From Psammoneis japonica (taxonomy: Eukaryota), in contig QPGO01000087.1 in assembly GCA_008632985.1 (NCBI GenBank), forward strand, positions 310,001 to 350,331: a stretch of 40,331 nt of DNA. The letters run 5' to 3'. This document shows, one piece after another, positions 1-40,331 of the stretch. Below the pieces are notes generated by a model, which was not told the DNA's origin, made no database searches, and saw only the letters and a list, made by a program, of their open reading frames with translations. Numbering within the stretch: the stretch's first letter is position 1; each line of letters opens with the position of its first letter. The position numbers and the translations under genes are program-made.

Positions 1-10
1 ATCGGTCCAC

Positions 11-2359
11 ATGTTAGTTCACGAACATGGAATGGAACATTTCTTTGTCATGAAGCTCGGAGAGAAGGTCGTAGACCTCTTCGATCACCTCCACAGCTTC
101 ACCGTCGACGAGGTCATTGCTGAGTGTGACGAACGCGTGAACAAAGCGACAGACGATTCGGCATACGATGAGCACGAGCATGACGACATCAACCTTGCCC
201 GTCTCATCGTCGAGTCTCGTGTCACTCACCAGTTCCGCGAGAAAATTGAAACCCAGTTTGGCCATCGGGACCTCTTCCGTTACTTCCCTGGCCAAGTTAT
301 TTTTATGATGGCGCTCGAAACCTGCAATGCCTCCGCCGTGCATGATGTCGCTCAAGCTTCTGACGATTTTGACGCTTTGACGCTTGATTCCTGTCCTGGC
401 AAAGACTTTGCCGAATTTGCTGCCGAAGCGCTCTGTCTCACCAAGATCCTCCAAACAGGACATGCGCTGCCTGTCTCTCTCGGGTCCGATCTCCTTCGGA
501 AGTGCTACAAGACCTCTGGCGAAGCGTTCAATCAAGCAATGTACGCCAAGTTAGATGACGTGACAGCCATGGAACGGAAATGTCGTTTAACGGACCCAGC
601 GCCACTTGCCAAGGACAAGGATTGCTTCACTCTCGGTCCAACCGCATGCACCACATTCCTTCAGACGAAGCATCGCCACTTTGTCACCAATGAGGGCTGG
701 CCTGGTCTTTCCACCAAGCTGCCTCAGGGCAACCACACTGAAGGCAAGGGCGCCTGCAATGCTTGCGGTGCTCTAGTCCATTGGGCTGACGATGAGTCAT
801 GTCCCAAGTGTGCGGAACGTCAGCGCCTCAAGAAGCTTGCCCGTCAAAAACGGAAGGGTCAACAGCCATCAGGTGCTCCGTCACCTCCCGCTGCTGCTCC
901 TGGTGCCATTGCTCCAGCGAATGCACCTGCGGATAAACAAGCAAAATTCAAGGAACTGTTGGCAAACGAGCCTCATCGTTGCACCCGTCCGGCCGATCTC
1001 AATCAAGCGGTCGTGAACAAGCATGGGTCGACTGCTCACTTTTGCACCAAGTGCACGTGCCGTCACACCGGTGTCAAAGGGTTTTACACTGGACACAAGG
1101 ATGCCGCCCATGCCAACAAGCCACCCAAGAAGGAACAGCCAGATGCCAATCTTGCATCCGTTGCTGATCCAGACTCTGGCGTGCCGGCTGGACCACCAGC
1201 TCAGACCACTCCCGACCCTTCGTCCACCAAGTCCGATGAATCGTCCGACGATGATGAGTCTCCCGTTTCTGAGGATGAACCAGTCTGGACCGGGGCCGGG
1301 ATTCATTGCTGTCCTGTTGAGGATGCATCCGATGATGCTGCTCCCCTTGCACGAGTCTCCGTCCTTTTGGGTCCTTCCGTCCAGAGGGAGCGGCCAGTGA
1401 TTTTGGTTGAAACAGTTGAACCAGAAGACGCTGACGATTTCAGCGAGTGCTGCGACACTTGCGACAATTTGGATTGGGGTGATTCTGTCATCCTCTTTCC
1501 GGCTTCGATGTTCCCAAAGGAGCCTCCTATCTTGGACGATCCACCACCTCCTGTCGAGTCCACTGACCTTGATGACGAGTTCTACGATGCAATCTCTGAG
1601 CCTGCTCCAAATGTCCTTGACCTGGAACCTCAGCCTGCTCATTGCTGGCTCTGGTCCCTCCTCAAGATCCCCATCTTCTGGCTCTCTGCACTTCTTTGGG
1701 AAGGCATGCTGTGGCTGGCAGGTGCTGGTGGTGATCCGCCGCCGCCCTCGCATTGCTGTCGCCGTCTCAAGCGCAAGCCCACTCCATTCAGTTGCCCGTG
1801 TTGGTGGGGCGTGATCTCATGTGCGATTGCGCTTTGGCTCTCCGTCTGTCTTGGACGAGCCCCGCCCCATCCGAGCGTTCCCTTGCAGCGCCCATGCTCT
1901 CAGACCCACAAGGTTGTCCAGGCTCTTGACGATCATGTCGTCTTGACTCCTGGCACCCTGCTGCAGTGTCATCATTTGAAGATCAAGCAGTTCAAGCATG
2001 AGGTGCTAGAACCAGAGGGAGCTGCGCACGACACAGTGACCTTGCCTTTTGAGCTTCATGAGTTGATCAAGACCAGTGAGCTCGACGACTGCTTCGACAC
2101 CCACGAAGAGTTTCCCGTCCATCACAAGTCCTTCTTCGACGCTGATGCCTTTCGTGAGTCGGACTTCTCCAGTCCCGACATCTTTCGTATCTCTGAGTTG
2201 CGTCGAGACCAACATTTGATTGACTGCACCGCATTCCAGCCTGCTGTCGCGGAACTTGTTGCCCAAGCCTCAGTGGGTGCCAGTGCCTCACCTTCCCCAA
2301 TTGCACAACCTGCTGCTGCTGCTGTCCAAGCTCTCACAGGAGCCACCCAACTGTCGTGA
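11..2359 (+). pseudogene. gag: gag region of the copia polyprotein (open 5' end) plus long linker
   Basis: Zn-knuckle-like CNACGALVHWADDESC and a second Cys/His cluster FCTKCTCRH..GH..AH. The TGA at 2357-2359 is in frame with the pol ORF at 2384, with no other stop between them, so it is probably CGA->TGA in a single gag-pol ORF. Confidence 0.85.
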
Positions 2360-3844
2360 CTGGCTGGGGACCCTGCTGTCCTCATGTCCGTCGGACAGCC
2401 GTCTCTGGAGGTCATCTTTGATGCTGGCGCCTCGCTTGTCATCTCTCCGGATAAAGATGACTTTGACGGGGACATCCAAGCACTGCCTGCGCCTCTCAAG
2501 CTCGGCGGCATGGCCAACGGGTCACCTGTTGATGGCATTGGCACCGTCTCCTGGTGCTTTCAGGCAGCGGATGGCAGCGACGTGAACATCCAGACTCGTT
2601 GCCATTGTGCGCCAAAGGCCAACGTGCGTCTGCTGTCTCCACAGCCTCTCTTTCAACCTGCGGGCACTCGAGGCCACTTTTGGGGCAACAGTGAGATTTT
2701 CAAGCTTTGTTTTTGTGGCACACCCGAGATCCACGTTGCATGCGACAAATGCACGAACTCACCGGTCGGCCCCACGTCTCGCGGCGCTGTGTGCGCTCCC
2801 CAAGTCAATTTGAGCGCCATTGCTGACCCTGACAACCTCAATCTGTCTTCTGGACAAAAGTCACTGGTGGACATCCATGCTCGGTTCGGGCATCTCAACT
2901 TTCCCCACATCCAAGCTCTTCTCCGCCGCCCTCCTTTCACCGCTCTCAAGTTCGCGTCCGCTTCCAAGTGTGACATCCCCAAATGCGACACCTGCGAGTG
3001 TGCCAAGGCTCACTGCCATCCTGCTAAGGCCCAACGGAAGACTGCTGTCCCTGAACGCGATGGGGCTCTCAAGGCTGGTCATTTACATCCAGGTCAGTCC
3101 GTGAGTGTTGATCATTTCGAGTCGCGTCTCAAGGGTCGCACCTGCGATTCCCATGGCAAATCCTCCTCTCAGCAGCATGTTGGCGGCTGCATCTTCGTTG
3201 ATCATGCTTCTGGGTTCACACATGTCGAGCATCAAGTTGTTTTCTCTGCAGTTGAGACGATGCGGGCAAAACAGGGTTGTGAGCAGATGGCTCTCGGTCA
3301 CTGCGTCATCGTGCAGGAGTGCCTTACCAACAATGGTGCTTTCAAGGCCAACAAGTTTGTTGCGCACATCCGTGACTCTCAGCAACGTGTCCACTGTTGT
3401 GGAACGAACGCTCATCACCAGAACGGCATCGCCGAGCGGTCCATTCGTTCTGTCTCCAACATGGCGCGAGCCATGATCCTCCATGCTTCCATCCACTGGC
3501 GCGGTGGTGTCGACAGCTCGTTGTGGCCAATGGCGGTCAACTGCACCGCTCACATCTACAATGACACTCCGGCATCGAATGGGCTTTGTCCTGCCGACAT
3601 CTTTACCGGATCCACCATCCCACGCCATCGTTTGCTTGATTTGCATGCTTGGGGCTGTCCTGTCTGCGTCCTGGATCCCAAGTTGCAGCAAGGTCAGAAA
3701 TTGCCGTGTTGGCAACCAAGATCAAGGCGTGGTGTTTTTCTTGGCCTCAGTTTGGTTCACGCCAGCGAGGTCCCACTGGTCCTGAACTTGAATGCCGGGT
3801 CCATTGCTCCTCAGCATCACGTGGTGTTCGACGATCTCTTTACC
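2360..3844 (+). pseudogene. pol: aspartic protease + integrase of copia pol
   Basis: VIFDAGAS (D[ST]GA-like protease site); HARFGHLNF...CDTC Zn finger; integrase core VSVDHF / LTNNG (D->N) / HQNGIAERSIR; WGCPVCVLDP and RGVFLG..HVVFDD C-terminal motifs. Confidence 0.92.
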
Positions 3845-4570
3845 AGCAAACTCGCCCGTGAGAGCTTCTCGCATGTTCGGTGTGTCATCATTTTTCTTGG
3901 CCTTGGCAGCGTAGACACGAGGGTCTTGAATGTCCAATTGACCACTGTCACAGCAGGTCTGGATCTCAGCAAGACAAGCGAGCTGGGAATTGTGTCCTCC
4001 AGCATCTGATGGCTCGACTGAGGCTAGACAGACTTCATCGGCAAAACGAGTTGCAGCTCGCTTGCCTTTGTTTGATCTTTGTGAGCGACGCACGTTCTGT
4101 TCAGTCGTGGGTGGGACTGGGACATCTGGAGCCGGGACTGATGTGTCTGATGGCCCCTCCGCACCTGATGGAGGTGGCGGACATATGGGAGGCATTGAAT
4201 GACCAACCTCTGACTCACTCATTGATGGATTGGAGTTTTGCGGTGGCTGCGATGGCAGTTCCTGGGGTGGTGCTGATGGCAAGTCGTCAGAATTTGATGG
4301 TGCAAACGCAGTGGGACATGCAGATGGCAGTGGTTCGACGACCGGAGCAATGGGCTTTGAAGATTTTGTAGTGGCAGGCTGTTGCTGACGTGCATTCCTG
4401 ATGAGACGCTCATGTTCTTCATGTCGCCATTTCTGCTCGAGTTCTGCAGGAGTGAGCCAATCGTCTTGAAGGAACAATTGTTTCTCGCTCAAATCCAGTG
4501 GCATCTGGATGACATTCTCCAAACAAAGCTCTTCCCAGTGATCAGGTGGCTCACTCTCCCTCTCGATTCG
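3845..4570 (-). pseudogene. inverted integrase-RT linker of the same copia element
   Basis: The minus strand reads IERESEPPDHW...VRRSQRSNKG..RF...DPRVYAAKAKKNDDTPNMREALTGEFA. This is the linker expected between HVVFDDLFT (+, ends 3844) and QCIEAMKTKV..TW (+, from 4574). Confidence 0.9.
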
Positions 4571-4573
4571 ATG

Positions 4574-6182
4574 CAATGCATCGAGGCCATGAAGACCAAA
4601 GTGGCCGTGCTCATTCATCGTAAAACATGGAAATTTGTGAAGCGCACTCCCTCCACGAACATGTTGAAATCAACGTGGGCTTTTTAAGTTGAGACGCTCA
4701 CCCGACGGTGCTCCGCTGAAATTCAAGGCTCGATTTTGTTGTCGTGGCGACTTGCAGCAAGAAGGAGTCAATTGCTTCGAGACTTGCACTCCAGTGGTCC
4801 AGTGGTCGACCATTCGTCTGTCATTGAGTGCTGCATTGCAAGAAGGGTGGACAACTCGTCAAGTTGACTACACAAATGCGTTCGCACAAGCTGACATCGC
4901 TGAAGACGTTTGTGTCGAACCTCCCAAATGTTTTGGTCCTTCCTCAGGCACCAACATCGTGCTCAAGCTACTCAAGACGCTCCATGGGTTGAAACAAGCC
5001 CCGAAATGCTTCTGCGAAAAGCTGCGCGAAGGATTGATCGAACGAGGCTGGGATCAGTCAGCAGCAGACCCTTGTCCATTTTTCAAGGATGGCATGATTT
5101 GTGTCATTTACGTCGACAACACCATCCTCGCTGGCGCCAATGGAGACATTCTGGAACGCGAGATTGCAGCTCTGGGAATCCAAAAGGAAGAACAACGCCA
5201 CATTTTCGAGCTTCGTAATGAGGGAGAAGTTGGCGACTTCCTCGGTGTCAAGATTTGCAAGACCAGACCCAAGGAGTTCCTACCAACTCAACCGGGTCTG
5301 ACTGATGAGGTCCTCAAGGCCGCTGGCATGGAAGATTGTCGCCCTTCACCCACGCCATGCACTGCTTCTCCATGCCGTGCTGATTCAGAGGGAGCCGATT
5401 TTGCCGAACCATGGGATTGCCAATCAATTGTCGGGATGCTCATGTGCTTGTCGGCAAACTCTCGTCCCGACATCACATGTGCTGCCCATCAAGCCGCTCA
5501 CTTCTCCCATGCTCCCAAACAGTCCCATGCGGTCGCAGTGAAGCGCATCCTTTGTTGTCTTCAAGGTGCCAAGGACAAGGGCCTCCATCTGTGCCCTGGC
5601 GACAACCAACGAGTTGATTGTTTCGTGGATGCCGATTTCGCTGGACTCTACGGTCATGAAGACTCCCAAGACCCCGTGAGCATCAAGTCTCACACTGGAT
5701 GCGTCACATTGCACTGTGACTGTCCTGTCTTGTGGGTCTCCAAGCTGCAGATGCAGACTGCTCTCTCCACCATGGAAGCAGAACATCTGGCACTGTCAGC
5801 CAGCATGCGCGACCTGACACCTGTCCGAGAAATTTTGAAAGAAATTCAGTGTCATGCACTCGGGCGCAAGAATGTTTCTGCTCCCACTGCTGCCAAGTCT
5901 AAAGCCTTTTCTGATGTGAAAGACGGTGCAATTCCTTCCTCCATCGTCTGCGAGGACAACCAAGCATGCCTCAAGTTCGCGAAAATGGCAAAGATGTCTC
6001 CACGCACCAAACACATTGGCATTCCCTGTCATTGGTTCCACACTAAAGTCGAAGCGCTTGAGATCGTCATTGAGCCTGCAGGAACCAACTCTCAGCTTGC
6101 AGATCAATTTACAAAGGGGTTGGTCCAAGCTCTGTTTGAAGCTGGTCGGAAGAGTCTGTCTGGCTGGCAGCTCTGCGGTTGA
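4574..6182 (+). pseudogene. pol: reverse transcriptase (RVT_2 type) + RNase H of copia pol
   Basis: STWAF(+1 T in the run at 4681-4685)KLRRSPDG..KFKARFC.RGD, VDYTNAF, LHGLKQAP, YVDN (YVDD with D->N), SRPDI, FVDADFAG, STMEAE, EDNQAC, RTKHI, QLADQFTKGL. Confidence 0.95.
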
Positions 6183-6192
6183 GAGGGAGAGT
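6181..6192 (+). promoter_or_regulatory. polypurine tract (PPT) of the copia element
   Basis: GAGAGGGAGAG(T) immediately after the end of pol and before the LTR. Confidence 0.8.
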
Positions 6193-6344
6193 CAAAATGT
6201 CAAAGTCATTTCAGACATTTGTGAATGTCGCTTGCATCATCAAGATTCAAATCATCTCCTCTCTTCTCACAAATCTGATCAAAACCGATCGTTGAGATCT
6301 CTCTTCAGTTTGCACTCACAATTTCTCCATGGAGAACTTTGACA
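6190..6344 (+). repeat. putative 3' LTR (~150 bp; start at 6190 or 6198)
   Basis: Follows the PPT. TGTCAAAGT (6198-6206) and ACTTTGACA (6336-6344) form a perfect 9-bp terminal inverted repeat. The partner LTR is outside the window. Confidence 0.65.
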
Positions 6345-7369
6345 ACGACTTCTGCCATTCTGTTGCAACCTTGAGCTCTTGCTCTTGCCAACACAAGCTG
6401 CTTCATTGCATCTTTGGCATTGTCAATGAGAGATTTGATCTGGTGACACCATGGTGATGGTCTGTGTGATCATCTGGAGCATGACTGCCCTGAGCCAGTT
6501 TGGAGTTGAGGGTTGGGACTCATGGCAGCATGCAGACCATTGTGTGTGCAAGGCTGGATGGAGACTGTGATGTCATCTGTCAGTGCTGCATCTGTGCCAA
6601 ACACATGCAGCCAGCTTTTCCGCATTTGCGGGTGCAAAACCTGTTTTGGACAAGCACGTTTAGCCAGCAAAAAGAACAAAGGAGCCACCAGGCATGAATC
6701 AAAAGTTGCATTTGCTGGCATGCTGCCTGCTCCCTTCCAAGGAGACAGTCAGACATCCTCGTTGGAGGTGCCCTGTCATTGCCAGCCCCAGGGAAATCCC
6801 TTTGCCAACATCAAATGAGCCACAATGCAGAAAAGGCAGAATTGTGGAGGCACTGCTGTGGTTGGCATCCTCAGCAGTTGCCCATGCTTTAGAGATGAAA
6901 GCAGACTTGTCTGCTCTTTGTTTTGGGACTTTCCCAAAAGTGGCAGATTGCAGATTGCCACGAAAAACACCCCACAACCTTGAGTTGCATGCTGTGATCA
7001 TTGGTGTCCTCTTGAGTCAAACTGCATGATGTGTTGTCACTTTTGCTTGTCGCTGTTGTCATTGTCATCATCATCATTGTCGTCATCCAGCTGATGTCAC
7101 TCTCTTTCATTCTCCAACCCAATGTTGTCCAGCCAACACTCAGCATTGCAAAGCATCTCACTTTTCTGATGCTGGACAAAAATTGACAAAGATCAAAACA
7201 AAACAACAGCTTCAGACAACAAAAACCATTGAATGAAGAAACCACGTGACCATTGCATGCACCAATTGAGTGTTGCAGTCAACAAGACAGCAAGAAAAAA
7301 AATGCTGCAAGGAAACACATTGTGTTGGAGAGTGCTTTAACTTGCCATTGTTTGCACAAATTTGGCACC

Positions 7370-10300
7370 CAGCATGTGCCATCCAGCATCCAACATCCAA
7401 CATCCATCATCTGCCATCCACCATCCAACATCCACCATCCAGCATCTGCCATCCAGCATCCGCCATCCATCTGCCAACCATCTGCCAACCATCTGCCCAT
7501 CCAGCATCCAACACCCATCATCTGCCATCCACCATCCAACATCCACCATCCAGCATCCGCCATCCAGCATCCGCCATCCATCTGCCAACCATCTGCCAAC
7601 CATCTGCCATCCACCATCCAGCATCCAGCATCCGCCATCCACCATCCACCATCCACCATCTGCCATCTGCCATCTGCCATCTGCCGTCTGCCATCCGCCA
7701 TCCGCCATCCAGCGTCCAGCATCCACCATCCACCATCCACCATCTGCCATCCACCATCCACCATCCACCATCCAGCATCCGCCATCCGCCATCCGCCATT
7801 TGCCATCCGCTGTCCAGCATCTGCCATCCACCATTTGCCATCAACCATCCACCATCCACCTTCCAGCATCCGCCATCCTCCATCCGCCATCCAGCATCTG
7901 CCATCCGCCATTTGCCATCAACCATCCACCACCCAGCATCCACCATTCGCCATCCACCACACAGCATCTCCCATCCACCATCCGCCATCCAGCATCCAGC
8001 ATCCAGCATCCACATGGCATCCGCCATCCACCATCCACCATCCACCATCCACCATCCACCACCCATCATCCGCCGTCCAGAATCCACCACCCACCATCCA
8101 CCATCCACCATCTGCTGTCCAGCATCCGCCATCCACCATCCGCCATTCACCATTCGCCATTTTTCATCCACCATCCGCCATCCACCATCCGCCATCCACC
8201 ATCCGCCATCCGCCATCCGCCATCCGCCAGCCATCACCTGGCATCCACCATCCAGCATCCAGCATGCAGCACCCGCCATCCACCATCTGCCATCCACCAT
8301 CCACCATCCACTGTCCAGCATCTGCCATCTGCCATCTGCCATCCGCCATCCGCCATCCACCATCCACCATCCACATCCACCATCTGCCATCCACCATCCG
8401 CCATCCACCATCCACTATCCACCATCTGCCATCTGCCATTCAGCATCCACCATCCACCATCCGCCATCTGCCATCTGTCATCCACCATCCACCATCCACC
8501 ATTTGGCATCCGCCATTCGCCACCCGCCATCCAGCATCCAGCATCCAGCATTTGGCATCCGCCATCCACAATCCACAATCCACCATCCACCATCCAGCAT
8601 CCGCCACCCGCCATCCGCCATCCACCATCCGCCATCCGCCATCCACCATCCGCCATTTGCCATCTGCCATCTGCCATCTGCCATCCACCATCCACCATCC
8701 ACCATCCATCATCCACCATCCAGCATCTGCCATTTGCCGCTCGCCATCCACCATCCAGCATCCCCCATCCACCATCTGCCATCCAGCATCTGCCATCCGC
8801 CATCCACCATCCAGCATCCGCCACTCGCCATTCACCATCTGGCATCCCCCATCTGCCATTCACCATCCAGCATCTGCCATCTGCCATCCAGCATCCAGCA
8901 TCCAGCATCCAGCACGCAGCATCCACCATCCACCATCTGCTGTCCAGCATCCGCCATCCACCATCCGCCATTCGCCATTCGCCATCCACCACCCGCCATC
9001 CACCATCCGCCATCCACCATCCGCCATCCGCCATCCGCCAGCCATCACCTGGCATCCACCATCCAGCATCCAGCATGCAGCATCTGCCATCCACCATCTG
9101 CCATCCACCATCCACCATCCACTGTCCAGCATCTGCCATCTGCCATCTGCCATCCGCCATCCGCCATCCACCATCCACCATCCACCATCCACCATCCACA
9201 TCCGCCATCTGCCATCCACCATCCGCCATCCACCATCCGCCATCCACCATCCAGCATCCCCCATCCACCATCTGCCATCCAGCATCTGCCATCCGCCATC
9301 CGCCATCCAGCATCCGCCATTCGCCATTCACCATCTGGCGTCCCCCATCTGCCATTCACCATCCAGCATCTGCCATCTGCCATCCAGCATCCAGCATCCA
9401 GCATCCAGCACGCAGCATCCGCCATCCACCATCTGCAATCCACCATCCACTGTCCAGCATCTGCCATCTGCCATCCACCATCCACCATCCACATCCACCA
9501 TCCGCCATCCACCATGCACCATCCGCCATCTGCCATTCAGCATCCACCATCCACCATCCGCCATCTGCCATCTGCCATCTGTCATCCACCATCCACCATC
9601 CACCACAAAGCATCCCCCATCCAGCATCTGCCATCCGCCATCCGCCATCCAGCATCCAGCATCCAGCATCCAGCATCCGCCATTCGCCATCCATCACCTG
9701 GCATCCACCATCCAGCATCCACCATTCGCCACCCACCACACAGCATCTCCCACCCACCATCCAGCATCCAGCACCCAGCATCCACATGGCATCCGCCATC
9801 CACCATCCACCATCCAGCATCCGCCATCCAGCATCCGCCATTCACCATCCACCATCCAGCATGCAGCATGCAGCATCCGCCATCCGCCATCTGCCATCCG
9901 CCATCCGCCATCCGCCATCCACCATCCACCATCTGCCATCCGCCACCAGTCATCCACCATCTGCCATCTGCCATCTGCCATCTGTCATCCACCATCCACC
10001 ATCCACCATCCAGCATCTGCCATCCGCCATCCGCCATCCGCCATCCACCATGTGCCATCCGCCACCCGCCATCCGCCACCCGCCATCCGCCATCCGCCAT
10101 CCACCATCCGCCATCCACCATCTGCCACTCAGCATCCAGCATCCACCATCCACCATCCGCCATCCACCATCCGCCAACCAGCACCTGGCATCCACCATCC
10201 ACCACCCACCATTTGCCATCCACCATCCAGCATCCCCCATCCACCATCCGCCATCCAGAATCTGCCATCTGCCATCCGCCATCCGCCATCCACAACCACA

Positions 10301-13300
10301 ATCCACCATCCACAATCCACCATCCAGCATCCGCCATCTGCCATCTGCCATCTGCCATCTGCCATCTGCCATCCACCATCCACCATCCACCATCCACCAT
10401 CCAGCATCCGCCGTCCAGCATCCACCATTCACCATCCACCATCCACCACACACCATCCAGCATCCAGCATCCAGCACCCAGCATCCGCCACCCACCATCT
10501 GCCATCCGCCATCTGAAATCTGCCATCCACCACCCACCATCCACCATCCACCATCTGCCATCCGCCATCCGTCATCCACCATCTGCCATCTGCCATCTGT
10601 CATCCACCATCCACCATCCAGCATCCGCCATCCAGCACCCGCCATCCATCTGCCAACCATCTGCCGTCCACCATCCACCATCCAACATCCAGCATCCACC
10701 ATCCAGCATCCAGCATCCAGCATCCACCATCTGCCATCCACCATCTGCCATCCACCATCCGCCAACCAGCACCTGGCATCCACCATCCAGCATCCACCAT
10801 TTGCCATCCACCATCCAGCATCCCCCATCCACCATCCGCCATCCGCCATCCGCCATCCGCCATCCACCATCCACCATCCGCCATCCTCCATCCACAATCC
10901 ACCATCCAGCATCCGCCATCTGCCATCTGCCATCCACCATCCACCATCCAGCATCCGCCGTCCAGCACCCACCACTCACCATCCACCATCCACCATCCAG
11001 CATCCAGCATCCAGCATCCAGCATCTGCCATCTGCCATCTGCCATCCGCCGTCCACCATCCACCATCTGCCATCCTCCATCTGCCATCCACCATCCACAA
11101 TCCACCATCCAGCATCTGCCATCCACCATCTGCCATCTGCCATCCACCATCCAGCATCTGCCATCCGCCATCTGCCATCCAGCATCCGCCATTTGCCATC
11201 CACCATCCACCATCCGCCATCCGTCATCCGCCATCCACCATCCACCATCCCCCATCTGCCATCTGCCATCTGCCATCTGCCGTCCACCATCCGCCATCCA
11301 CCATCCACCATCTGCCATCTGCCACTCAGCATCCACCATCCACCATCCGCCATCCGCCATCCACCATCCGCCAACCAGCACCTGGCATCCACCATCCAGC
11401 ATCCACCATTTGCCATCCACCATCCAGCGTCCCCCATGGACCATCCGCCATCCAGCATCTGCCATCTGCCATCCGCCATTTGCCATCTGCCATCAGCCAT
11501 CTGCCATCTGCTGTCCACCATCCACCATCCGCCATCCGCCATCCACCATCCATCACCTGGCATCCACCATCCAGCATCCAACACTCGCCATCAACCATCC
11601 AGCATCCCCCGTCCCCCATCAAACATCCGCCATCCAGCATCCAGCATCCGCCATCCAGCATCAGCCATCCGCCATTTGCCATCAACCATCCACCATCCGC
11701 CATCCAGCATCTGCCATCCGCCATCCACCATCCACCATCCACCATCGGCCATCGGCCATCCGCCATCCGCCACCCGCCATCCAGCATCCAGCATCCACCA
11801 TCCGCCATTCGCCATCCACCATCCGCCATCTGCCATCTGTCATCCACCATCAACCATCCAGCATCTGCCATTCGCCACCCGCTGTCCAGCATCCAGCCTT
11901 TGGCTTTGGCACCCGCCATCCACAATCCACAATCCACCATCCACCATCCAGCATCCGCCATCCGCCATCCGCCATCCGCCATCAGCCATCCGCCATCCGC
12001 CATTTGCCATCTGCCATCCACCATCCACCATCCAGCATCCATCATCCACCATCCAGCATCCGCCATTCACCATTCGCCATCCACCATCCAGCACCCCCCA
12101 TCCACCATCTGCCATCCAGCATCTGCCATCCTCCACCCGCCATCCAGCATCCGCCATTCGCCGTTCACCATCTGGCATCCCCAATCCACCATTCACCATC
12201 CAGCATCTGCCATCCGCCATCCAGCATCCAGCATCCAGCACGCAGCATCCGCCATCCACCATCTGCCATCCACCATCCACTGTCCAGCATCTGCCATCTG
12301 CCATCTGCCATCTGCCATCTGCCATCCACCATCCACCATCCACCATCCGCCATCCACCATCCGCCATCCACCATCCACCATCCACCATCCGCCATCTGCC
12401 ATTCAGCACCCACCATCCACCATCCGCCATCTGCCATCTGCCATCTGTCATCCACCATCCACCATCCACCATCCAGCATCTGCCATCCGCCATCTGCCAT
12501 CCAGCATCCAGCATCCGCCATTCGCCATTCGCCATTCGCCACCCACCATCCACCATCCACCATCCACCATCCACATCCACCATCCACCATCCACCATCCG
12601 CCATCCACCATCCGCCACCCACCATCCACCATCCGCCATCCGCCATTTGGCATCTGCCACCCACCATCCACCATCCGCCATCCATCACCTGGCATCCACC
12701 ATCCAGCATCCACCATTTGCCATCCACCATCCAGCATCCCCCACCCAGCATCCGCCATCCGCCATCCAGCATCCGCCATCCGCCACCCACCATCCACCAT
12801 CCGCCATCCAGCATCCAGCATCCGCCATTCGCCATCTGCTGTCCAGCATCCAGCATTTGGCACCCGCCATCCACAATCCACAATCCACCATCCAGCATCC
12901 GCCATCCGCCATCCGCCACCCGCCATCCGCCATCCGCCATCCACCACCCACCATCCGCCATTTGCCATTTGCCATTTGCCATCCACCATCCACCATCCAG
13001 CATCCACCATCCACCATCCACCATCTGCCAGCCGCCATCCGCCATCCACCATCCACAATCCACCATCCACCATCCAGCATCCGCCATCCGCCATCCGCCA
13101 TGTGCCACCTGCCATCTGCCATCTGCCATCTGCCATCCACCATCCACCATCCACCATCCGCCATCCAGCATCCAGCATCCACTTTCCGCCATCCGCAATC
13201 CAGTGTCCAGCATCCGCCAAAAACCATCCGCCATCCGCCACTTGCCATCAACCATCCACCATCCACCATCCGCCATCCAGCATCCGCCATCCACCATCGG

Positions 13301-24693: not shown

Positions 24694-24702
24694 CCCTTCC
24701 CT
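24694..24702 (-). promoter_or_regulatory. PPT (AGGGAAGGG)
   Basis: Purine run abutting the TG start of the 3' LTR. Confidence 0.8.
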
Positions 24703-28954: not shown

Positions 28955-29936
28955 CCATGACACCACCCACAAATGTGTCAACAGCACCAAACACTTTCCC
29001 AATTTGCCATGCTTGCAAGAGTTCCGTTTGAGTCAATTTTTGGAGCCACAGTGTTGTTTGTGCCAAATGCACCATGCAAATGAGCACATGCATCTTGTTT
29101 TTGCATGTTTTTTGACAACTGCCTGTGGCTTCTTTCACTCAGTGCTGGTGCCAGAGTGCTTGTGATGGAACATTTAGCAGCACAACCTGCACATGCTGTG
29201 TTTGCACTGTTCATGGAGCCAACACATCCATCCAAGGGACGTGGTTGTCAAGGGGTCACAGGCAAATCATCACAGTGTGGTTGCTTGGCCTAAATGTCAC
29301 TGCCGCTGAGATGCACCCGAAGCTTGAATCTTGTTTCCTGGCATTTAGAATCCACACACATGCAGCAATATCAGTCATGCTTTGTGCCATGGGTTGGGGC
29401 AAGAAGTGGTTGTTGTTTCTCACACATTTTGTGTTGGCTCCCATGACATCCACCCACAAATGTGTCAACTGCACCAAACACTTTCCCAATTTGCCATGCT
29501 TGCAAGAGTTCCTTGAGTCAGTTCTTGGAGCCACAGTGTTGTTCATGCCAAATGCACCATGCAAACAAGCACACGCATCTTGTTTTTGCGTGTTTTTGAC
29601 AACTGCCTGTGGCTTCTTTCACTCGTGCTGGTGCTAAAGTGCTTGTGGCAGAACATTTAGCAGCACAACCTGCACATGCTGTGTTTGCATCTTTCATGGA
29701 GCCAACACATCCATCCAAGGGACGTGTTTGTCAAGGGGTCAAAGGCAAACCTTCACAGTGTGGTTGCTTGGCCCAAATGTCACTGCCACTGAGATGCATC
29801 TGAAGCTTGAATCTTTTTCCTGGCATTTAGAATCCACACACATGCAGCTAAAACAATTGGTCATGCTTTGTGCCATGGGTTGGGGCAAGAAGTGGTTGTT
29901 GTTTCTCACACATGATGCACACTTTGTGTTGGCTCC
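28955..29936. repeat. tandem duplication, two ~490-bp units (28955-29440, 29441-29936)
   Basis: Both units begin CCATGACA..CACCCACAAATGTGTCAAC and end TTTGTGTTGGCTC, and are collinear throughout. Confidence 0.92.
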
Positions 29937-30624: not shown

Positions 30625-32905
30625 ATGTGCACATTTCCACCAGCAAAAAACCTCATTCCACAGCTTTTCCAAATCTCTGACAACCAAAACCTGGGGGTGC
30701 AAAAAGCACTTCTTGGAAGACTGTGCACACACCAAAACATCATGCGTCAAAGTGACTCAACCATGATGACCTCCCATTCTTTGCCCCCTGCACAACCTGA
30801 CACATCCCCACCTGCCGCATCTGACATGTTGGTCCATCTCATGATGGTTGGTGCCATTGCACTCACTGTTGCAACTTAAAGACAGCAGATTTGAAATCCA
30901 GAAGATTGAGCTTGTGTTCCCCGGATCCACAATTGACCATGAACAACATTGCTGCCATTTGTCATTGAGTGCTGCAATCAAGCACAATTCATCAACAAGA
31001 AGAGACAATCATCATGATGAAAAACAACAGCTTTTAGGAGAGAAGAGTGTTTGGTGGCTGTGAAGGTTGTGGTCAAGATGGTGGTGATCACTTCTTGTCT
31101 TCATGAGATGGCGGTCATGGTGGACATGACACTTGCAACAATCATGATGGAGGATGTGGTTGTAAGATCATCTGCTCATGCTCCGACCACTGTGGATGCA
31201 AGCAGACCTGGTGGTGGCAGAGGTGATTCTGCTTGGAACAACAAAGGCACGGGATTGACAAGCGCCAATGGACTGGGCATTGGCAGAGGAGATTGTGGCC
31301 CGTGCTCCTTGTGTGGTCCTGGCCGTGGCAGAGGAGCATCTGGGAGGTGTCAAGACAGCTTTGAAGGAGGATTCAGCTAAAAGAATGCAGGCAGAGGAGG
31401 TGCTGGCATGCAAAATGGCAGCATGGCTGGCAACACAGCACCAGCTGGGAAGTCCAGCAGCAATGAACACAGCAAGCATTTGCCAAAAGCTCTTTGCCAC
31501 CTGTCTCTGTTTTAGCAAATTGCATGAACAGCACAAGTGCATGTGCTGCCACTGCTGTCCCTGCCACATGCTGTTGCATTTCTGCATTGATTCAAAATCA
31601 AGGGAAAGGGATGCCAGCTTTGCCAAGTTTGGAATGATTTCACAGAGATTTTTGATGATGTGAGCTCCCATTCCTCTGTCATCATTGCAGCACATCCCTC
31701 CCAGCAATCAACGCACTGACCTGTCATTCACAGTCTTCAAGCAAATGCATTGTCATTGGCAAAGCAGCTCTGAAACCAACAACAAATCACCGTGACCGTG
31801 CATGGTTCTCAATCTCTGGACAAGTGCCAGTGAAGATGACACCAAGGTGTTGTGTCAAAGAGTGAGCTCACTGTCAGCTTGATTTCAATTTCAGAAGTCT
31901 TGGTGTTGTTGTTGCTCATTTCTGTGTTGTTGTTGCTCATTTCTTTTACATTTTATGTTTTTGTTTCATTCAAGCTGGCAATCCATCACTGTGCAACACA
32001 ATGAGGAGAACGGCATCAGCAAATGCCAAGTTTCAAACCACTTTACAGAGATTTTTGTCATGCTTCATGGACAATTGGAGTTTGAACAATCAACACACCA
32101 ACAGAGATGGAATTGCTGCAGGTTGGGAATTGGTGACAGACATTGATCAACTGAAAGTTTTTCTGCGGCCAAAATTGACCAATGCAAAGAGGAACACGGG
32201 ATTGGCATTTCATTCTGGGAAGGACTTCCACATGAGAACTTAGTGCTTCTTTGCTTGGTTTGCAGAAGGGTCAGCTGAAGGAATGCACAAGTCAACAATT
32301 GGATGATGCACACATGTGACCTCATGGAATTGCAGCAAGAGCAGACCTGTTGCAACTCACCAGACCACTGTCAAATGACGGATGTGTTGCCAATCAAATT
32401 TCTTGTTCTTTCCACAGGACAAAGCATGAGACTTCTGGCAGCTGTTTGAAGAACATGTTGCAATGCATTGCTCTTCCAAGCAGGCTGTTCCTTTTTTAAG
32501 ACATCAAGAGACACCCTTGAGATGGATGTGGTGGCATCATTGTCAGAAAAGGTGCCAGCATTTGGGACAAAACTGGTGGCACCCATGGCAACATCATCAA
32601 CTGCAGCAGCATGTTGGTGACTTGAGATTGGCGGCACATCCCACTAGAAGGAAGCATGTCACGCACATCAGCAGACATGTGAGACAAAGGCAGTTTGGCA
32701 GAGGTGTGGCTGGTGAAGGCATTTGGTGCAGGAGATGAAGAATGGGAGGTCATCATGGTCAAGTCATCAAAACACGTGCATTTTTGTGCTTGAAAAGGAG
32801 TGGCCAAAAGTGCGTTTCTATGCCCTCAGTTTTTGGTGGTCAGAGGTTTGGGGGAGAACATGGTTCAGGATTTTTCCTGTCACTGTTGGCAGATTTGTGC
32901 ACAAA
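30625..32905. repeat. diverged inverted repeat pair (~30625-30795 and ~32725-32905)
   Basis: The shared core ACCATGATGACCTCCCATTCTT..CCTGCAC and upstream CCAAA.CTCTGAC.ACCAAAA.CTG.GGG occur in opposite orientations. Confidence 0.65.
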
Positions 32906-34081
32906 TGCATAAATTAAGACAAGCAGGGCAGTGTGGTTTGTTGACAACAGAACAAGAGGTGAAGGCAATTCCAGTTTTGTTGTGCTTCATTGTTGAGTCC
33001 CACTTGCTGGCATGGCCCACTCCAAGACAGACAAAGTGAAGTTTGCACGTGATTCCACAATCCTCTCACAGAAATGCAGGTCATTGACCCACATGTGGTG
33101 CAGCACATTTGTGTTGTTCAGGAGAACTTGCATCTTGATTTGCTCCCAACTCACAAGGGATTTGGAGAACTGACCTTGATTGTTTGCATCAGCAGTGGGT
33201 GACTGGCATTCATCTTGTTGCCAATCAAAAAGGACATGTCAAGCAGCTGTGTGTTGTCTGATTGCACAGAATCCTTGAAGGAATCACTCCAAGGGTCCGT
33301 TGCGCATTGGTGCATCAACAATTCCAGGATGCGACAATGCCGGCAGGGCAGGTTCATCACCTTCAATCCAAACGCAATCTGGATCACCCAATTTTTGGCC
33401 ATTGGTTCAACCATCACCATCAGAATCTGTCATGCAGAGCTCATGGGTCCAAATGTGTGAAACAGGGCAGGGTTGAAAGCCAAATCACTGCTCCATTTCT
33501 GCACCAGTTACCTGCAGCATTTAGATGCTCATTTTAAAATTTTAAAATGTCAATTGGTTTTCTCTCTCTCTGCTTTCAATTCTTGCAACAATGCTGGTTT
33601 TGAGATCTCTGCATGGGCATCCAATCAAAATGTGCAATGCAAACCTTTTGCAGCAAAGACAAATCACAAATTGACCCATCTGGAATTTGCAGCCTCCTTT
33701 CAATCCACATGAGCACACCCCCAAAGACTTGTGGAGAGAACAAAAGGCTCCTGAGCACACAAAACAAGAAGAGAGCAGATGGACTGAACTTGTTTTGAAC
33801 CTTGGACTCTGAAGTGGCAGCATGGTTTGACTGCTCTGCTGTTGGTTGGGAGAGGTTGAGTGGCTTTTTGTGACTTGCAACTCAAGGCTTCTTGTTGGCA
33901 CATCAGCACATGCAATGCAGCCTTTGGAGCCTGCTGCTTGCTGGAGCTGAGATGTGCTGGACAGCTCTCTGTGTGCCCAGGCTTGGTTCATCAGATGCTC
34001 AAACACAAAATTTTCTTTTCTTGTGCTGTGGTCACTTGGCCTCCATCAAAAAATCCACAGCAGCCCAAACCATCCCCGTGC

Positions 34082-35818
34082 ACTGTGCTCGAAGAACAAG
34101 CACAAACGAAAGTAGAGTGGTGTGCGAAAAGTGGAAATTATGAGATTAAATTTTACTCTGTGATTTTTGGTTTCTCCGAATGAGTTCTCAATGGCCCAAA
34201 GCTTCTGCACTGCTTCTACAGACAAAAGGCCTTTCGGAGAACACAATCGTGACAACAGATGGTCCGAGTGTGATTGGCATTGACACATGAGATGTCAAAA
34301 CATTGTCTGTCAATTGCATTTGCGATTTTCGACTTCCGATCAACTCTGTCTTAGACGGCTGTTGCTCTTGGTTGCTCTTCGGAAGAATGAGATCAACCAA
34401 GAGAAAACAACCATTGACTCTTGTTGGCATGCGCAAGCGCGTTCAAATTTTCAACAGCTGTAAAATGAACCAACGGTTGGAATGGGTCATTTTTGCCATG
34501 AACACATGATTGAACAACAGGATAGACAGGCCGTTTTACAATGTTCTTCCACTTGCACTTCAGCGACGCAATGGTCATCCATTTGCTGCTGTTCTCTTGG
34601 GCTGTTTTCAAGGAGCGTCACAACGCCTCGTCTCCCATTAGATTCTCCATGCAGAAGTCAAGAAAGTTGTTGCCACGATGTTCAAAAGCTTGTGCATCAC
34701 ATCATCCCTGCATCTGATTCAGCAGTGTCTTTGCAACTGCAAAATGAGGCTTGGAAACCAAGGCAAGCCATCCAATGTTGCGACTCTGTTCTCCCCACAA
34801 ACATCAGTCACTCATGCAATCGTTGTCCAAAAAAACAGCACCGTGCACCATGTTGACTCTTTCAAAATCAACATCTGTCAGAGTCATTGGTGCTGCCAAT
34901 GCTTTGTAAGGTGTCATGATGGCGCATGTCTGCTTTGTCTTGCTCCTCTCATTCTTGTCAATTTTGGCTTGATCTGCTGCTCTCTTCTTCGCGCTCAAAA
35001 AACCAAATGAGATTGAGACGATGACTTTTTGTCAACTCATTATTTGTTCTTGTGGTTCTCCTGCCATGCGCTGCTCCATCTCCTGCTGGCAGTCTCTGCT
35101 GCTGGAGAGAGAGTGCCATGCCTCTCTGCTCCACAGAGACCTGCTGCATGAACCGGCACCGGGGCAGCTGCTCTGTGCACAACACAGAGCTGCTCTCCAG
35201 CCGCAGTGGAGAGGGCTCTCTCTGTTGTGTAGAGTCCCTGAGTTACCGGCAGAGTAGAGAGCCCGAACAGTCTCGCGCGGTGGGGCAGCCACCACTGCCG
35301 GTGCAGTGCTGTGCTCTCTCTGCTGTTCCCACATGTCGTGTGAGAGGGCATGGCTTGGCACAAATGCGGCAGAAGTGGTGTGATGGCTCTCCTCTCTGCT
35401 CATGGTGGCTGCTCTAGAAGTGGCACTCTAGAAAGCAGGAGTGGCACTCTAGACTCTCGAGTGTCATTGCGGTTTGCGGTGTTCCGTGTTCAGAAAAATC
35501 AAAAATTTCGAAAAGCTCCGCCCCGCAAAATTCAGCATGCAAAAACTGGAAGTCCCCACAGCCAATGTGCAATCATGCTGGAAATGGGGGGCCGGCCGGC
35601 AACTAATCCGATGCTGATTGAACGAGGACGAATTATTGAAGCCCACGGCGGAGCCTGCGCAGCCCTGCCTGTCCTGTTGTTTAATTGTGTGTCCATGATT
35701 TTCGCTTCGTCGAACGTCGCGAGGTGGGTGATCGTTCTGTCCTTCGCACGCATCCACGACTGTGGCACGATTGACATGTGAACAACATCTAATCACATTT
35801 GTGCATGTGACAGTCGCA
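34082..35818 (-). repeat. long 3' LTR-like repeat (~1.74 kb)
   Basis: 34080-34349 matches 38080-38346 and 35728-35818 matches 38347-38435. It begins TGCGACTG on the minus strand after a PPT-like AGGAAAAAG (35820-35831). Confidence 0.65.
34393..34998 (-). pseudogene. degenerate ~200-codon ORF of unknown function inside the long LTR-like repeat
   Basis: ORFs 34804-34998 and 34393-34611 are in the same frame. They join without a frameshift across three TGA codons, each compatible with CGA->TGA. Confidence 0.45.
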
Positions 35819-35829
35819 TGCTTTTTCCT

Positions 35830-36250
35830 GTGCAGGTGACATTTTGAAGTTGCTTTTTGTCAGGTGCAAACGTTCATTTCCAGTCGTTCTGACAACTCCA
35901 AACCTGTCATGAGTTCGCTCATGAGTTGCACGAAAATGTCTGGGGCTCCACAGATCCTCGCTGGAAGTCCACAGCACTCATTTTCCCCCACGGCATCAAT
36001 TCTGATGTGAGCACGACGTGTGCTTTTTTGATTTCACATGGTGGTGTTCCACGTTTGAATCAAACAGCATCACCCATGTGAAACATTCTTGCTTCAACAG
36101 CATTTTCTGAATGTTGAGCAAAGGACACACCATGTGTGTGAACCTTGTTGAGCTTCTGAGTGTCGGACAAGGTCAAACTCGACCCTTTTCCCTCAGACAA
36201 TGAGTCTCAGAGCAACTCATTCAGAGTCATTTCATTTTTAAGACTTCAAT
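35830..36250 (-). pseudogene. Ty3/gypsy reverse transcriptase remnant
   Basis: LSDTQKLNK (SDFRKLN), LDSNVEHHHVK (LDLNMGYYHI), ECCGLPARICGAPDIFVQLMSELMTGLE (YEY.RLPMG....PDIFQ..MSELM.GLE). Confidence 0.85.
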
Positions 36251-38030: not shown

Positions 38031-38081
38031 TGAAATTTTCATTTTCCGTGTTTTTACCTTCTTGGTGTGTGTGCACAAAGC

Positions 38082-38435
38082 ACTGTGCTCAAAGAATGAG
38101 TGCAAACGAAAGTAGAACATTGTGCAAAAAGTGGAAATTATGAGATTAAATTTTGCTCTGTGATTTTTGGTTTCTCCGAATGAGCTCTCAATGGCCCAAA
38201 GCTTCTGCACTGCTTCTGCAGACAAAGGGCCTTTCAGAGAACACAATCGTGACAACAGATGGTCCGAGTGCGATTGGCATTGACACATGAGATGTCAACA
38301 TTGTCTGTTGATTGTATTGCAATTTTCGACTTCCGATCAACTCTGTGTGATCGTTCTGTCCTTCGCACGCATCCACGACTGTGGCACGATTGACACGCAA
38401 ACAATGCAAGATCACATGTGTGTGTGACAGTCGCA
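38082..38435 (-). repeat. short 5' LTR-like repeat (~355 bp) lacking 1.38 kb that is present in the 3' copy
   Basis: The junction ACTCTGT|GTGATCG at ~38346 joins sequences that are 1.38 kb apart in the other copy. Confidence 0.7.
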
Positions 38436-38609
38436 GTGCCGCACCCAGAGCACTGACAAAACAGCTCTTGCAAAACTTTTCTGCCTGTTTCCCTCCCCCC
38501 CACAGAGTGGTTCTTGGCAACAGTGCCACCCACATGCCAAGCTGCAGTCAAGACTGTTTGCTGAGCCACCAGCTGAGATGTCAAAATTGAGGTTGTGAGC
38601 TCCCACAGC

Positions 38610-38975
38610 NNNNNNNNNNNNNNNNNNNNNNNNNNNNNNNNNNNNNNNNNNNNNNNNNNNNNNNNNNNNNNNNNNNNNNNNNNNNNNNNNNNNNNNNNNN
38701 NNNNNNNNNNNNNNNNNNNNNNNNNNNNNNNNNNNNNNNNNNNNNNNNNNNNNNNNNNNNNNNNNNNNNNNNNNNNNNNNNNNNNNNNNNNNNNNNNNNN
38801 NNNNNNNNNNNNNNNNNNNNNNNNNNNNNNNNNNNNNNNNNNNNNNNNNNNNNNNNNNNNNNNNNNNNNNNNNNNNNNNNNNNNNNNNNNNNNNNNNNNN
38901 NNNNNNNNNNNNNNNNNNNNNNNNNNNNNNNNNNNNNNNNNNNNNNNNNNNNNNNNNNNNNNNNNNNNNNNNNNN
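38610..38975. other. assembly gap (366 N)
   Basis: Run of n. Confidence 1.
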
Positions 38976-39059
38976 CAAGCACATCAAGCACAAGAATTCC
39001 TCTGTGAGATGTGCCTGCAACAAAACACTCCACACAGCGATGCTGCACATGGGGTCTAA

Positions 39060-39410
39060 AGCAAGAGACATGTTGGCACATGACAAGCATTTGTGCAATG
39101 TCACCTTTGGAGCATGCTTCTCACTGGAACTGGAGTGGAGGACAGCTCTCTGTGACCAGGCCATGTCCATCAGACACTCCATCACAAAAGCATCTTCTCT
39201 TGCTCTGGCCACTTGGCTTCCATCAAAAGAAAGTTCCCACAGTCCAGGCCACCTGCCATTGACAAAATGGCTCCCCCAAAACTTTTCTGCCTGTTCCCCT
39301 CTTCCCCAACAGAGCCACTCTTAGCAACAGTGCTGCCCACACACCAAGCTGCAATCAAGATGGTCTGCCAAGATGCCAGCTGAGACACCAAACTCAAGGT
39401 TGCAGGCTCC
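39060..39410. repeat. uninterrupted paralog of the gypsy target sequence (33890-34077 joined to 38436-38609)
   Basis: Shared TGTTGGCACAT, CCTTTGGAGC, GGACAGCTCTCTGTG and CACTTGGC.TCCATCAAAA, then CAAAACTTTTCTGCCTGTT and CCAAGCTGCA.TCAAGA. Confidence 0.7.
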
Positions 39411-40331
39411 AGAACCACAAGACACACAAGGCAGCATGCTTCTGGTGCTGGTGGCAATGCTGAGCTCTTCTTGCACAGCTTCCCAGGAGCACATGCACCC
39501 AGACCTCCAGAACACCAGCACAAGAGCCACAAGAATTGCCCTCCTCCTTTTGCAGCCATGACAGCACTTTGCCCCACACCACCTGCAAGAAGGAGTGCAG
39601 GCAGCCTCACTCCTGGGCTGCCTGGCCCCACCACATGCCACAGCTCTTTGCACAGTTGAGTGAGAGACACCAGCACTGTGAAAACCCTGAGCCAAGGCTG
39701 GAGCTGGCAGGAGCTCATGTCATTGTTGTGCCCCCCCCACCACCACCACACACACACCATGGCTGAAAATGGCACACAAGCCTCCTCAAGCTTGTTTGTC
39801 ATTTGTCAGTGCCACAGGACAATTTGAGCTTGTTGTTGATGCAAACAAGGTCTGAGCAAGGTCAGGCCCAAGAATTGTTGAGCATGCTGAGCACACAACC
39901 TGAGATGTGCCAGCAACAAGACTCCATGCACAGCACTGCAGCCAGCACCAAGAGCTTGCTCATGACCAAAACACACCAGGGTCTGAAGCAAGCCAAACTT
40001 GTGCCTTTTTTTCTCCCTGGCCCTTCCCAAATGCAGCCTTTGAGTGAATGGTCACCCTGGCTGAAGTTGCAACATGCACCCACCTTTTGCGCCTGCAGCA
40101 ACCACCCCAGACCACAAAGAAGAAGCCAACAAATCTTTGGCCCTGCTTGCACGGTCAATTTTTGTGTGCATCAAGTGGTTGAATCCCCTCCTTTTTCCCT
40201 TTTCCTTTTAAGAATCAGTCACAAGCATGAAAAAATTGCAAAGATGATGCATGACATTGAACGTGTCAAGATCGGCGCAGAGAGTTTAGAGTTTGTGGGT
40301 GGGTGTGCTTTTGCAGGTGGCTCAAAATTGC

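Follow-up and report, generated by a model that had tools for sequence, protein, structure and literature searches.

What kind of process removes nearly every TpA dinucleotide from a long stretch of DNA? The question is raised by a 40,331-nt stretch of contig QPGO01000087.1 (the whole of it is called the window here; its one gap of N's lies at 38610-38975), which opens with a dead Ty1/copia-type retrotransposon, the copia element, and continues through a spacer, a heptamer satellite, and degenerate DNA. Across the window, 179 TpA were observed and about 2,349 were expected from base composition, an observed/expected ratio (o/e) of 0.08. A first reading made from the letters alone (the sequence-only reading) had described TpA as rare throughout, with some 40 in the first 6.3 kb, and this proved accurate, as we counted 39 there. 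The depletion was present in every 2-kb bin (TpA o/e 0.00-0.17) and in all 157 N-free 500-bp bins (o/e at most 0.30), and no edge to DNA with normal TpA was seen in those 157 bins. We consider it likely that the window records a near-complete, strand-symmetric, TpA-specific transition process that acted at the DNA level over a block of mobile-element, satellite, and degraded DNA. This process appears to be of the same kind as the change of TpA to TpG or CpA in integrated viral DNA of Bigelowiella natans, described in a preprint whose main target is a single-copy viral insert (Mettrop et al., bioRxiv, April 2026; 10.64898/2026.01.13.699255), and we read the window as an end-state instance of this very recently described kind of hypermutation.

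The two dinucleotides that a transition at TpA would yield were in excess, with o/e values of 1.78 for TpG and 1.79 for CpA, and outside the satellite they occurred almost equally often (3,257 TpG and 3,214 CpA). ApA (o/e 1.00), TpT (1.11), and ApT (1.29) were not depleted, TpC and CpC stood at 1.15 and 1.00, and CpG was depleted to a variable degree (0.11-0.81 by bin). [quoted passage not shown] When the window was divided into N-free 1-kb intervals, 33 of 39 passed both of the preprint's thresholds for erased clusters, and all 39 passed the threshold for TpA. Broken down by part, the copia element held 39 TpA for 321 expected (o/e 0.12; CpG o/e 0.77), the spacer between it and the satellite (6183 to 7378) held 3 for 88 (o/e 0.03; CpG o/e 0.19) and was the most TpA-poor part outside the satellite, and the degenerate DNA from 16629 to 40331 held 136 for 1,621 (o/e 0.08; CpG o/e 0.28).

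The depletion has a marked effect on apparent coding capacity. TGA accounts for 762 of the 882 stop-type trinucleotides, and because so few TAA and TAG remain, the two strands together contain 62 stop-to-stop frames of at least 150 amino acids, with frames of 2,000-3,100 amino acids spanning the satellite. Loss of TpA takes away TAA and TAG and is unable to create an in-frame stop, and dead, erased DNA appears rich in long open reading frames (ORFs) for this reason. Completed erasure leaves almost no TA, few Tyr codons, few TAA or TAG stops, and many long spurious ORFs, which gene finders would wrongly report as genes; in practice, gene prediction in TpA-erased DNA calls for caution.

Direction and strand symmetry of the change in the copia element

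The copia element (1 to 6182, plus strand; its 5' end is cut by the window edge) was recognized by a match to RVT_2 (E value 1.3e-27; 97 bits against a cut-off of 31.6) and by homologues, and gag_pre-integrs and SH3_retrovirus each matched at an E value of about 1.5e-5, just under their curated cut-offs. It comprises a gag-like part (2-2359, plus strand), a protease/integrase part (2360-3847, plus strand), an inverted internal segment of about 740 bp that corresponds to the linker between integrase and reverse transcriptase (RT) (3848-4585, minus strand), and an RT-RNase H frame of 504 amino acids (4668-6182, plus strand). The order of integrase before RT was confirmed by P0129, the nearest homologue and our single reference, which also revealed the inversion: its residues 1-185 and 450-948 align to the plus strand, and residues 183-411 align to the minus strand (4585 to 3851). 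Identity to homologues reached 61% over RT-RNase H and 72% over the integrase end. An in-frame stop (2357-2359), a frame change, and the inversion mark the element's decay. No long terminal repeats (LTRs) were identified for it, a search that included shorter proteins found no closer protein copies of the family above 67% identity, and a scan of metagenomes gave no match to the family above 53% identity except for 60% over a 47-residue fragment (L073).

Homologues were drawn from public metagenomes, and the 36 best were aligned to the RT-RNase H frame. Tyr makes up 3 of its 504 residues (0.6%, against 3.2% in the 36 homologues) and Cys makes up 5.8% (against 1.5%); the sequence-only reading had likewise counted three Tyr, and all 13 of the copia peptide motifs that it quoted were found in the translations. 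Twelve columns were conserved for Tyr, defined as Tyr in at least 70% of the 36 homologues, and at these the window has Cys at 6, His at 2, Tyr at 2, Phe at 1, and Thr at 1; 10 of the 12 Tyr are lost, and the replacement is Cys or His at 8, as had been claimed. Compared with P0129, the 30 aligned Tyr are Cys at 12 positions, His at 5, Tyr at 4, and another residue at 9, and P0129's own Cys are kept at 11 of 13 positions. Because the homologues carry Tyr and the Cys of P0129 were kept, the changes run from ordinary ancestral Tyr codons, that is, from TA to TG or CA. Other losses at conserved columns were Ile to Thr (3), Leu to Pro (2), Leu to Ser (2), and Val to Ala (3), and a single TA-to-CA step explains 2 of the Ile-to-Thr changes, 2 of the Val-to-Ala changes, and all 4 of the Leu changes.

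In all, 54 of 299 conserved columns were changed relative to the 36 homologues. Sorted at the codon level, with a TA or CG route counted first wherever several ancestral codons were possible, these divide into 11 that fit a single TA-to-TG step, 10 a single TA-to-CA step, 11 CG to CA, 2 CG to TG, 6 other transitions, 7 transversions, and 7 that need more than one step. The TA routes fit 21 of the 54 columns, and CpG decay fits 13. This agrees with the central claim of the sequence-only reading, a process from TA to TG or CA whose direction is the reverse of RIP's and which differs from CpG decay, as do the 33 CA/TG exchanges among 83 double differences between paralogues described below.

The Tyr content of the window's copia frames lies outside the range of the relatives that we retrieved. 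Among 257 homologous proteins (P0004-P0260; the figure refers to these and not to 120 shorter matches), Tyr was at least 2.3% in every one, with a median of 3.3%, and in the window's three frames it is 0.2-0.8%. In a control set of 80 related copia loci from metagenomes, TpA o/e had a median of 0.61, a minimum of 0.21, and a maximum of 0.92. Measured against P0012, 2 of 17 Tyr survive in the window (8 are now Cys and 3 His), and in 55 control loci the median survival is half; Tyr was replaced by Cys at most twice per locus among the twelve lowest-keeping control loci listed. The most TpA-poor of the 80 loci, L020:1-1693 from a metagenome (o/e 0.21; CpA/TpG 1.47), has 1.8% Tyr and 3.9% Cys, with SLCGLKQ in place of the conserved SLYGLKQ-type motif. 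Partial erasure of an element in another organism may be the explanation; as a second case, the locus was rejected as too weak, with no more than 2 of 16 reference Tyr replaced by Cys and 2 by His.

Duplicated copies, public reads, and surviving TpA

The TpA change acts after duplication, in place, and at the DNA level, because depletion in the spacer, the satellite, and the remainder of the window equals or exceeds that in the retroelement, and because repeat pairs differ at TA. Duplicated DNA in the window includes a tandem duplication of about 485 bp with 90.6% identity, found by self-comparison (28954-29936, plus strand), and a direct repeat pair with 91.5% identity whose members lie 4.0 kb apart and are possibly LTRs (34080-34349 and 38080-38346, plus strand). 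Across the 11 paralogous alignments obtained by self-BLAST (2,225 columns), 105 of 165 single differences were transitions, and CA/TG exchanges accounted for 33 of 83 adjacent double differences, with 4 in the next class. Read from the alignment, the direct repeats differ by TA/TG at 2 places, TA/CA at 1, CG/CA at 4, CG/TG at 1, and CA/TG doubles at 4, where a simple two-rate estimate from CpG and slowly mutating TpA would give about 1 such double; these are small numbers. The tandem copies differ by CA/TG doubles and by TA/CA, CG/TG, and CG/CA singles, among others. As sole proof of ancestral TA, the CA/TG doubles were rejected, since an ancestral CpG gives the same picture.

Reads were checked in one public run (X1), using sampled 31-mers from positions 1-7000 and contigs from another assembler. 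X1 holds 76% of the sampled 31-mers, and its contigs include a piece of 804 nt with 0 differences from the window and one of 537 nt with 1. At a likeness of at least 80%, 580 X1 contigs aligned to the window, in likeness classes of 94, 72, 173, and 241 contigs, which shows that there are many diverged copies. Compared with the window, these copies differ by A>G at 225 places, T>C at 238, C>T at 375, and G>A at 302, and each transversion occurs 31-44 times. Letter by letter, 40 of 1,425 differing places could be compared, and these are the basis for judging whether less-mutated copies keep Tyr, a condition named in the sequence-only reading: two TA that remain in the window (3085 and 3326) read TG elsewhere, and at one place (6920) the other copy has TA where the window has TG. 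Other copies also read TG at two of the window's CA (4811/12 and 4822/23). The second of these doubles falls in codon 52, which encodes Leu in 28 of the 36 homologues, pointing to an ancestral TTA that would now be TCA in the window and TTG in the other copies.

X1 contigs also show opposite-strand joints (3844-3846/4573) that flank the inverted segment of the copia element (3848-4585), which means that the segment is oriented differently in other copies or that it was misassembled. A run from the same sample as X1, X2, contains two short copia pieces, 82-86% alike, at 5951-6063 and 6889-6956; their loose ends contain 2 TpA in 90 letters, and they may come from a less-mutated relative or from another organism in the sample. 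Almost none of the window sequence was present in X2 and X3, and no RNA data set containing the stretch was listed.

The TpA that survive are unevenly distributed by flanking context. Outside the satellite, 8 are RTAY, 77 are YTAR, and 91 are mixed (R, purine; Y, pyrimidine), whereas the 80 control loci have 3,693, 2,946, and 7,027, respectively (odds ratio 0.083; P = 7e-19). The fraction TA/(TA+TG+CA) rises from 0.004 in ATAC/GTAT to 0.052 in CTAA/TTAG. If each strand contributed additively and an A with a pyrimidine after it were preferred, the order of the RTAY, mixed, and YTAR classes would be explained, and the same preference would account for the excess of Cys over His among changed TAY codons (12 against 5). 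The bias of the surviving TpA is new here; the main text of the preprint reports no flanking context. It suggests a testable extended motif, in which RTAY would be lost before YTAR.

The copia copy has lost 88% of its expected TpA while its CpG o/e is still 0.77 and long frames persist, and the parts that we call older have a CpG o/e of 0.19-0.28 and a TpA o/e of 0.03-0.08. TpA loss is therefore faster than CpG decay, since the copia copy had reached a TpA o/e of 0.12 at a CpG o/e of 0.77. CpG o/e is three-fold higher in the copia copy (0.77) than in the older DNA (0.28, with bins down to 0.11), a contrast that indicates cytosine methylation of the block and offers a relative age scale independent of TpA. 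For the giant-virus region of B. natans, the preprint gives 211 mutations over 3,132 line-generations and 6,169 TpA (10.64898/2026.01.13.699255). If these figures can be carried over, the rate would be about 1e-5 per TpA per generation, and an eight-fold loss would take roughly 2e5 generations. Counts of CpG by context were 203 for TCGN, 182 for ACGN, 181 for GCGN, and 158 for CCGN; a single enzyme editing both TpA and TCG, the latter being a target of amphioxus ADAT2, was rejected, since depletion of CpG is not strongest after T. No paper came up when the literature was searched for B. natans together with Dnmt5 and CG methylation.

Proposed mechanism, rival explanations, and other features

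In the mechanism that we propose, the A of 5'-TA-3' on either strand would become G, turning TA into TG, or into CA if the opposite strand was struck. We infer that the adenine is enzymatically deaminated to hypoxanthine, which is read as G, by an enzyme that favors A before a pyrimidine and would exhaust RTAY sites first and YTAR sites last. Its target would be an entire chromatin domain of foreign or silenced DNA, changed where it lies, and not single repeat copies; 5-methylcytosine-type CpG decay runs alongside more slowly. Adenine deamination is the leading chemistry, still unproven, and we know of no enzyme tied to a TpA-erasing process. The foreign or mobile targets in the window are the copia element, a second copia remnant, and the satellite. 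The sequence-only reading had called the process repeat-directed, which was not supported: the preprint's main target is single copy, and here the spacer has lost its TpA no less completely than the copia copy, indeed more so (contig depth being no measure of the spacer's copy number).

Several points weigh against this reading. TA is palindromic, so A>G cannot be distinguished from T>C on the other strand, and a route through modified thymine is possible. The only eukaryotic ADAT2 shown to edit DNA, that of amphioxus, has GAA as its preferred context when it edits adenine and TCG when it edits cytosine, and TpA is neither (PMC10354150). Targeting of foreign or mobile DNA is suggested by analogy with the preprint. 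The CA/TG doubles between paralogues may equally come from ancestral CpG that decayed differently in the two copies, and the YTAR bias could stem from regeneration of TpA (e.g., TCA>TTA) and not from an enzyme's preference. Lastly, X1 is perhaps the assembly's own data, in which case it excludes an assembler error and not an artefact at the level of the reads.

The first of these points leads to the rival that survives best, although we regard it as unlikely: the same targeted process with thymine chemistry, in which the thymine of TpA is modified (e.g., to 5-hydroxymethyluracil) and then mispairs or is misrepaired, giving T>C. Because TA is palindromic, this route would produce an identical TG/CA outcome and the same RTAY/YTAR symmetry, and in its favor, TpA and TpC are the sites at which dinoflagellate DNA is enriched in 5-hydroxymethyluracil. 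TpC is not depleted in the window (o/e 1.15), which argues against it, as does the preprint authors' naming of an ADAT2-like protein, if as a candidate only.

We think it rather improbable that a genome-wide, untargeted mutation bias leaves the whole genome TpA-poor and that an unconstrained block simply shows the equilibrium. Such a bias would explain why every part of the window is depleted without a boundary, in 157 of 157 bins, and why, where six X1 contigs run out beyond the copia element, their loose 30-letter ends contain no TpA in 165 letters. TpA loss is far faster than CpG decay, however, and a bias of that rate would load every Tyr codon and every TAA or TAG stop. None of the 80 other copia loci comes near the window's TpA value. 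In B. natans, moreover, the process is local, more than 1,000-fold above background, and the remaining genome has normal TpA, at 6.0% of dinucleotides (10.64898/2026.01.13.699255).

Editing of retrotransposon transcripts from A to I by ADAR or ADAT enzymes, fixed by reverse transcription, is a very improbable source of the pattern. ADAR favors a 5' U, according to the preprint's Discussion (10.64898/2026.01.13.699255), and the best-annotated target in the window is a retrotransposon. An ADAR-type process should leave A>G on the transcribed strand of retrotransposed DNA only, and this expectation failed: in the copia frame, T>C on the sense strand is as frequent as A>G (10 against 11) and Tyr-to-His changes (5) stand beside Tyr-to-Cys changes (12), while the spacer, the satellite, and other noncoding DNA are erased too. 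Duplicated copies diverged at TpA after duplication, and in the preprint the DNA that acquires the new mutations is resident, single copy, and transcriptionally silent.

It is just as hard to credit a sequencing or assembly artefact in which a modified base at TpA was misread as TG or CA. A strand-dependent miscall at a palindrome would yield a mixture of TG and CA, and the sequence is present in one study only, perhaps the assembly's own data. The contigs of the other assembler nevertheless hold 76% of the 31-mers, including 804 nt without a difference, and the 580 contigs in all likeness classes differ mostly by transitions, like real diverged paralogues. CpG decay, frameshifts, the stop, and the inversion are those of a truly degenerate element, and the evidence in the published case is Illumina sequencing together with new mutations that were inherited.

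We give next to no credence to error-prone repair by a DNA polymerase eta-like enzyme at WA motifs, an option raised by the sequence-only reading. The polymerase does make A>G errors at WA. WA includes ApA, yet ApA has an o/e of 1.00 overall and 1.18-1.22 outside the satellite, where TpA is at 0.03-0.12, and all of the preprint's hypermutations fall on TpA. Biased gene conversion was rejected, as ApA, TpT, and ApT are not depleted.

The satellite (7379 to 16628, plus strand) consists of about 1,325 heptamer units over 9,250 nt, as established with Tandem Repeats Finder and by unit counts, and its main units are CATCCAC, CATCCGC, CATCCAG, and CATCTGC. At the variable pyrimidine-purine position, CA (about 345 + 171 units), CG (about 232), and TG (about 162) occur, and TA never does. 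One TpA was observed in the satellite for 364 expected, a lack that is partly intrinsic, as the unit itself is without TA. There are 136 TpT beside the 1 TpA, and C>T variants are frequent elsewhere in the unit; this contrast fits continuing removal of TpA, with the caveat that homogenization makes the counts non-independent. The satellite was rejected as full evidence for TpA erasure, since its pyrimidine-purine site resembles CpG decay (CA/CG/TG) and is informative only through the near-absence of TA-creating transitions. The picture suggests a unit with a CpG (CATCCGC) that is decaying to TG and CA while being homogenized, and the satellite has a strong C/G strand skew (GC skew of about -0.66).

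Other remnants are faint. A weak second copia RT/RNase H remnant (32422 to 32637, minus strand) was found by tblastn with 11 homologues (best E value 1.1e-5). The Pfam scan covered 97 ORFs of at least 90 amino acids (120 outside the satellite minus 23 inside the copia element), and a permissive scan covered 19. The 5 such ORFs in the spacer gave no match above noise, the sole one being Menorin (E value 0.0079; 16.1 bits against a cut-off of 25), and the 92 ORFs in the degenerate DNA from 16629 to 40331, a part with repeat pairs, the N gap, and no recognizable domain, gave only one noise match (E value 0.005). Neither the standard nor the permissive Pfam scan found a domain between the direct repeats at 34080-34349 and 38080-38346, and no tRNA, Rfam family, or host gene was recognized in the window by tRNA, Rfam, and Pfam scans.

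Three other elements named in the sequence-only reading as bearing the same pattern could not be confirmed. Its long interspersed nuclear element (LINE) corresponds to a possible LINE-like, apurinic-type endonuclease remnant (18575 to 18910, minus strand), made up of the motif LDCVL (18575-18589, minus strand) and an adjoining sub-threshold match to Exo_endo_phos (18605-18910, minus strand; E value 0.083; 13.1 bits against a cut-off of 24.5), which was the sole match of the permissive scan. The EHHH motif of its gypsy remnant lies at 36038-36049 (minus strand) without Pfam support. For its noncoding primer-binding site, a pattern of that type gave 1 match with 1 mismatch, a result equaled in 79 of 100 shuffled sequences.

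Comparison with known systems

A-to-I editing, read as A>G, is shared by ADAR, TadA and ADAT2-ADAT3, and adenine base editors. In the natural tRNA substrate of the TadA/ADAT family, U33 precedes A34, so a 5' T or U before the edited A is built in. The natural substrates of ADAR and ADAT differ from the target here in being RNA, and the DNA-editing ADAT2 of amphioxus prefers the other contexts given above. AID/APOBEC enzymes offer a precedent for deaminase-driven hypermutation as a defense against retroelements. They convert C to U at TC or CC on single-stranded cDNA, which appears as G>A on one strand, whereas the changes in the window are A>G and T>C and strand symmetric, with neither TpC nor CpC depleted. 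Decay of CpG through 5-methylcytosine also ends in TpG and CpA and is present in the window, at 13 of the 54 changed columns, but it works on CpG, cannot remove TpA, and is slower there.

Fungal RIP resembles the proposed process in that DNA-level, dinucleotide-specific transitions inactivate mobile DNA and leave a skewed dinucleotide footprint. It requires duplicated sequence and a sexual stage. The direction is opposite: RIP turns CpA into TpA and so creates the dinucleotide that is destroyed in the window, and the B. natans case, unlike RIP, concerns single-copy DNA and arose in vegetative culture.

The closest counterpart is B. natans itself, and the preprint on it overtook the sequence-only reading's view that the pathway was undescribed; in a full-text literature search for other descriptions of TpA-erasing hypermutation, only this preprint was found. 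During mutation accumulation, 231 of 302 new single-nucleotide mutations fell in giant-virus and virophage regions, the viral-region mutations were almost all A>G or T>C, and every one of these A>G and T>C changes hit a TpA; they arose in some lines only, at a rate per site and generation of about 6e-7, compared with 3.5e-10 elsewhere (10.64898/2026.01.13.699255). The same genome contains 124 clusters of TpA-poor, CpA- and TpG-rich 1-kb windows and 324 gene models low in TpA, among which domains of reverse transcriptase and DDE endonuclease are over-represented, and the authors propose an ADAT2-like adenine deaminase (10.64898/2026.01.13.699255). The window is alike in target and outcome, TpA to TpG or CpA on both strands, and in the clustered loss of TpA with a gain of CpA and TpG. 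It differs in degree, as the giant-virus insert has a TpA rho of 0.45 and the virophage insert lies above the genome average, compared with 0.08 over 40 kb here, and in substrate, which is viral inserts there and a copia element, a satellite, a spacer, and degraded DNA here; the words copia, retrotransposon, and satellite do not occur in the preprint's main text.

TpA-specific hypermutation of foreign DNA, which would serve to disable that DNA, is a months-old discovery from one species with no known enzyme. The window adds near-complete erasure that takes in a copia element, the spacer next to it, a satellite, and degraded DNA of no recognizable kind, a loss of TpA that outruns CpG decay, and a bias of the surviving TpA toward YTAR over RTAY, and it extends the coverage past viral inserts to retrotransposons, a satellite, and neighboring DNA of unknown origin. 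More tentatively, the window may come from an organism other than B. natans and reflect a wider eukaryotic defense that silences entire retrotransposon and satellite domains to completion within about 1e5 generations, with the loss of RTAY first and YTAR last as the fingerprint of a DNA adenine deaminase that reads 5'-T-A-pyrimidine. If the source is indeed a second organism, the process would be a class of eukaryotic genome defense that mirrors RIP, and not a curiosity of one species.

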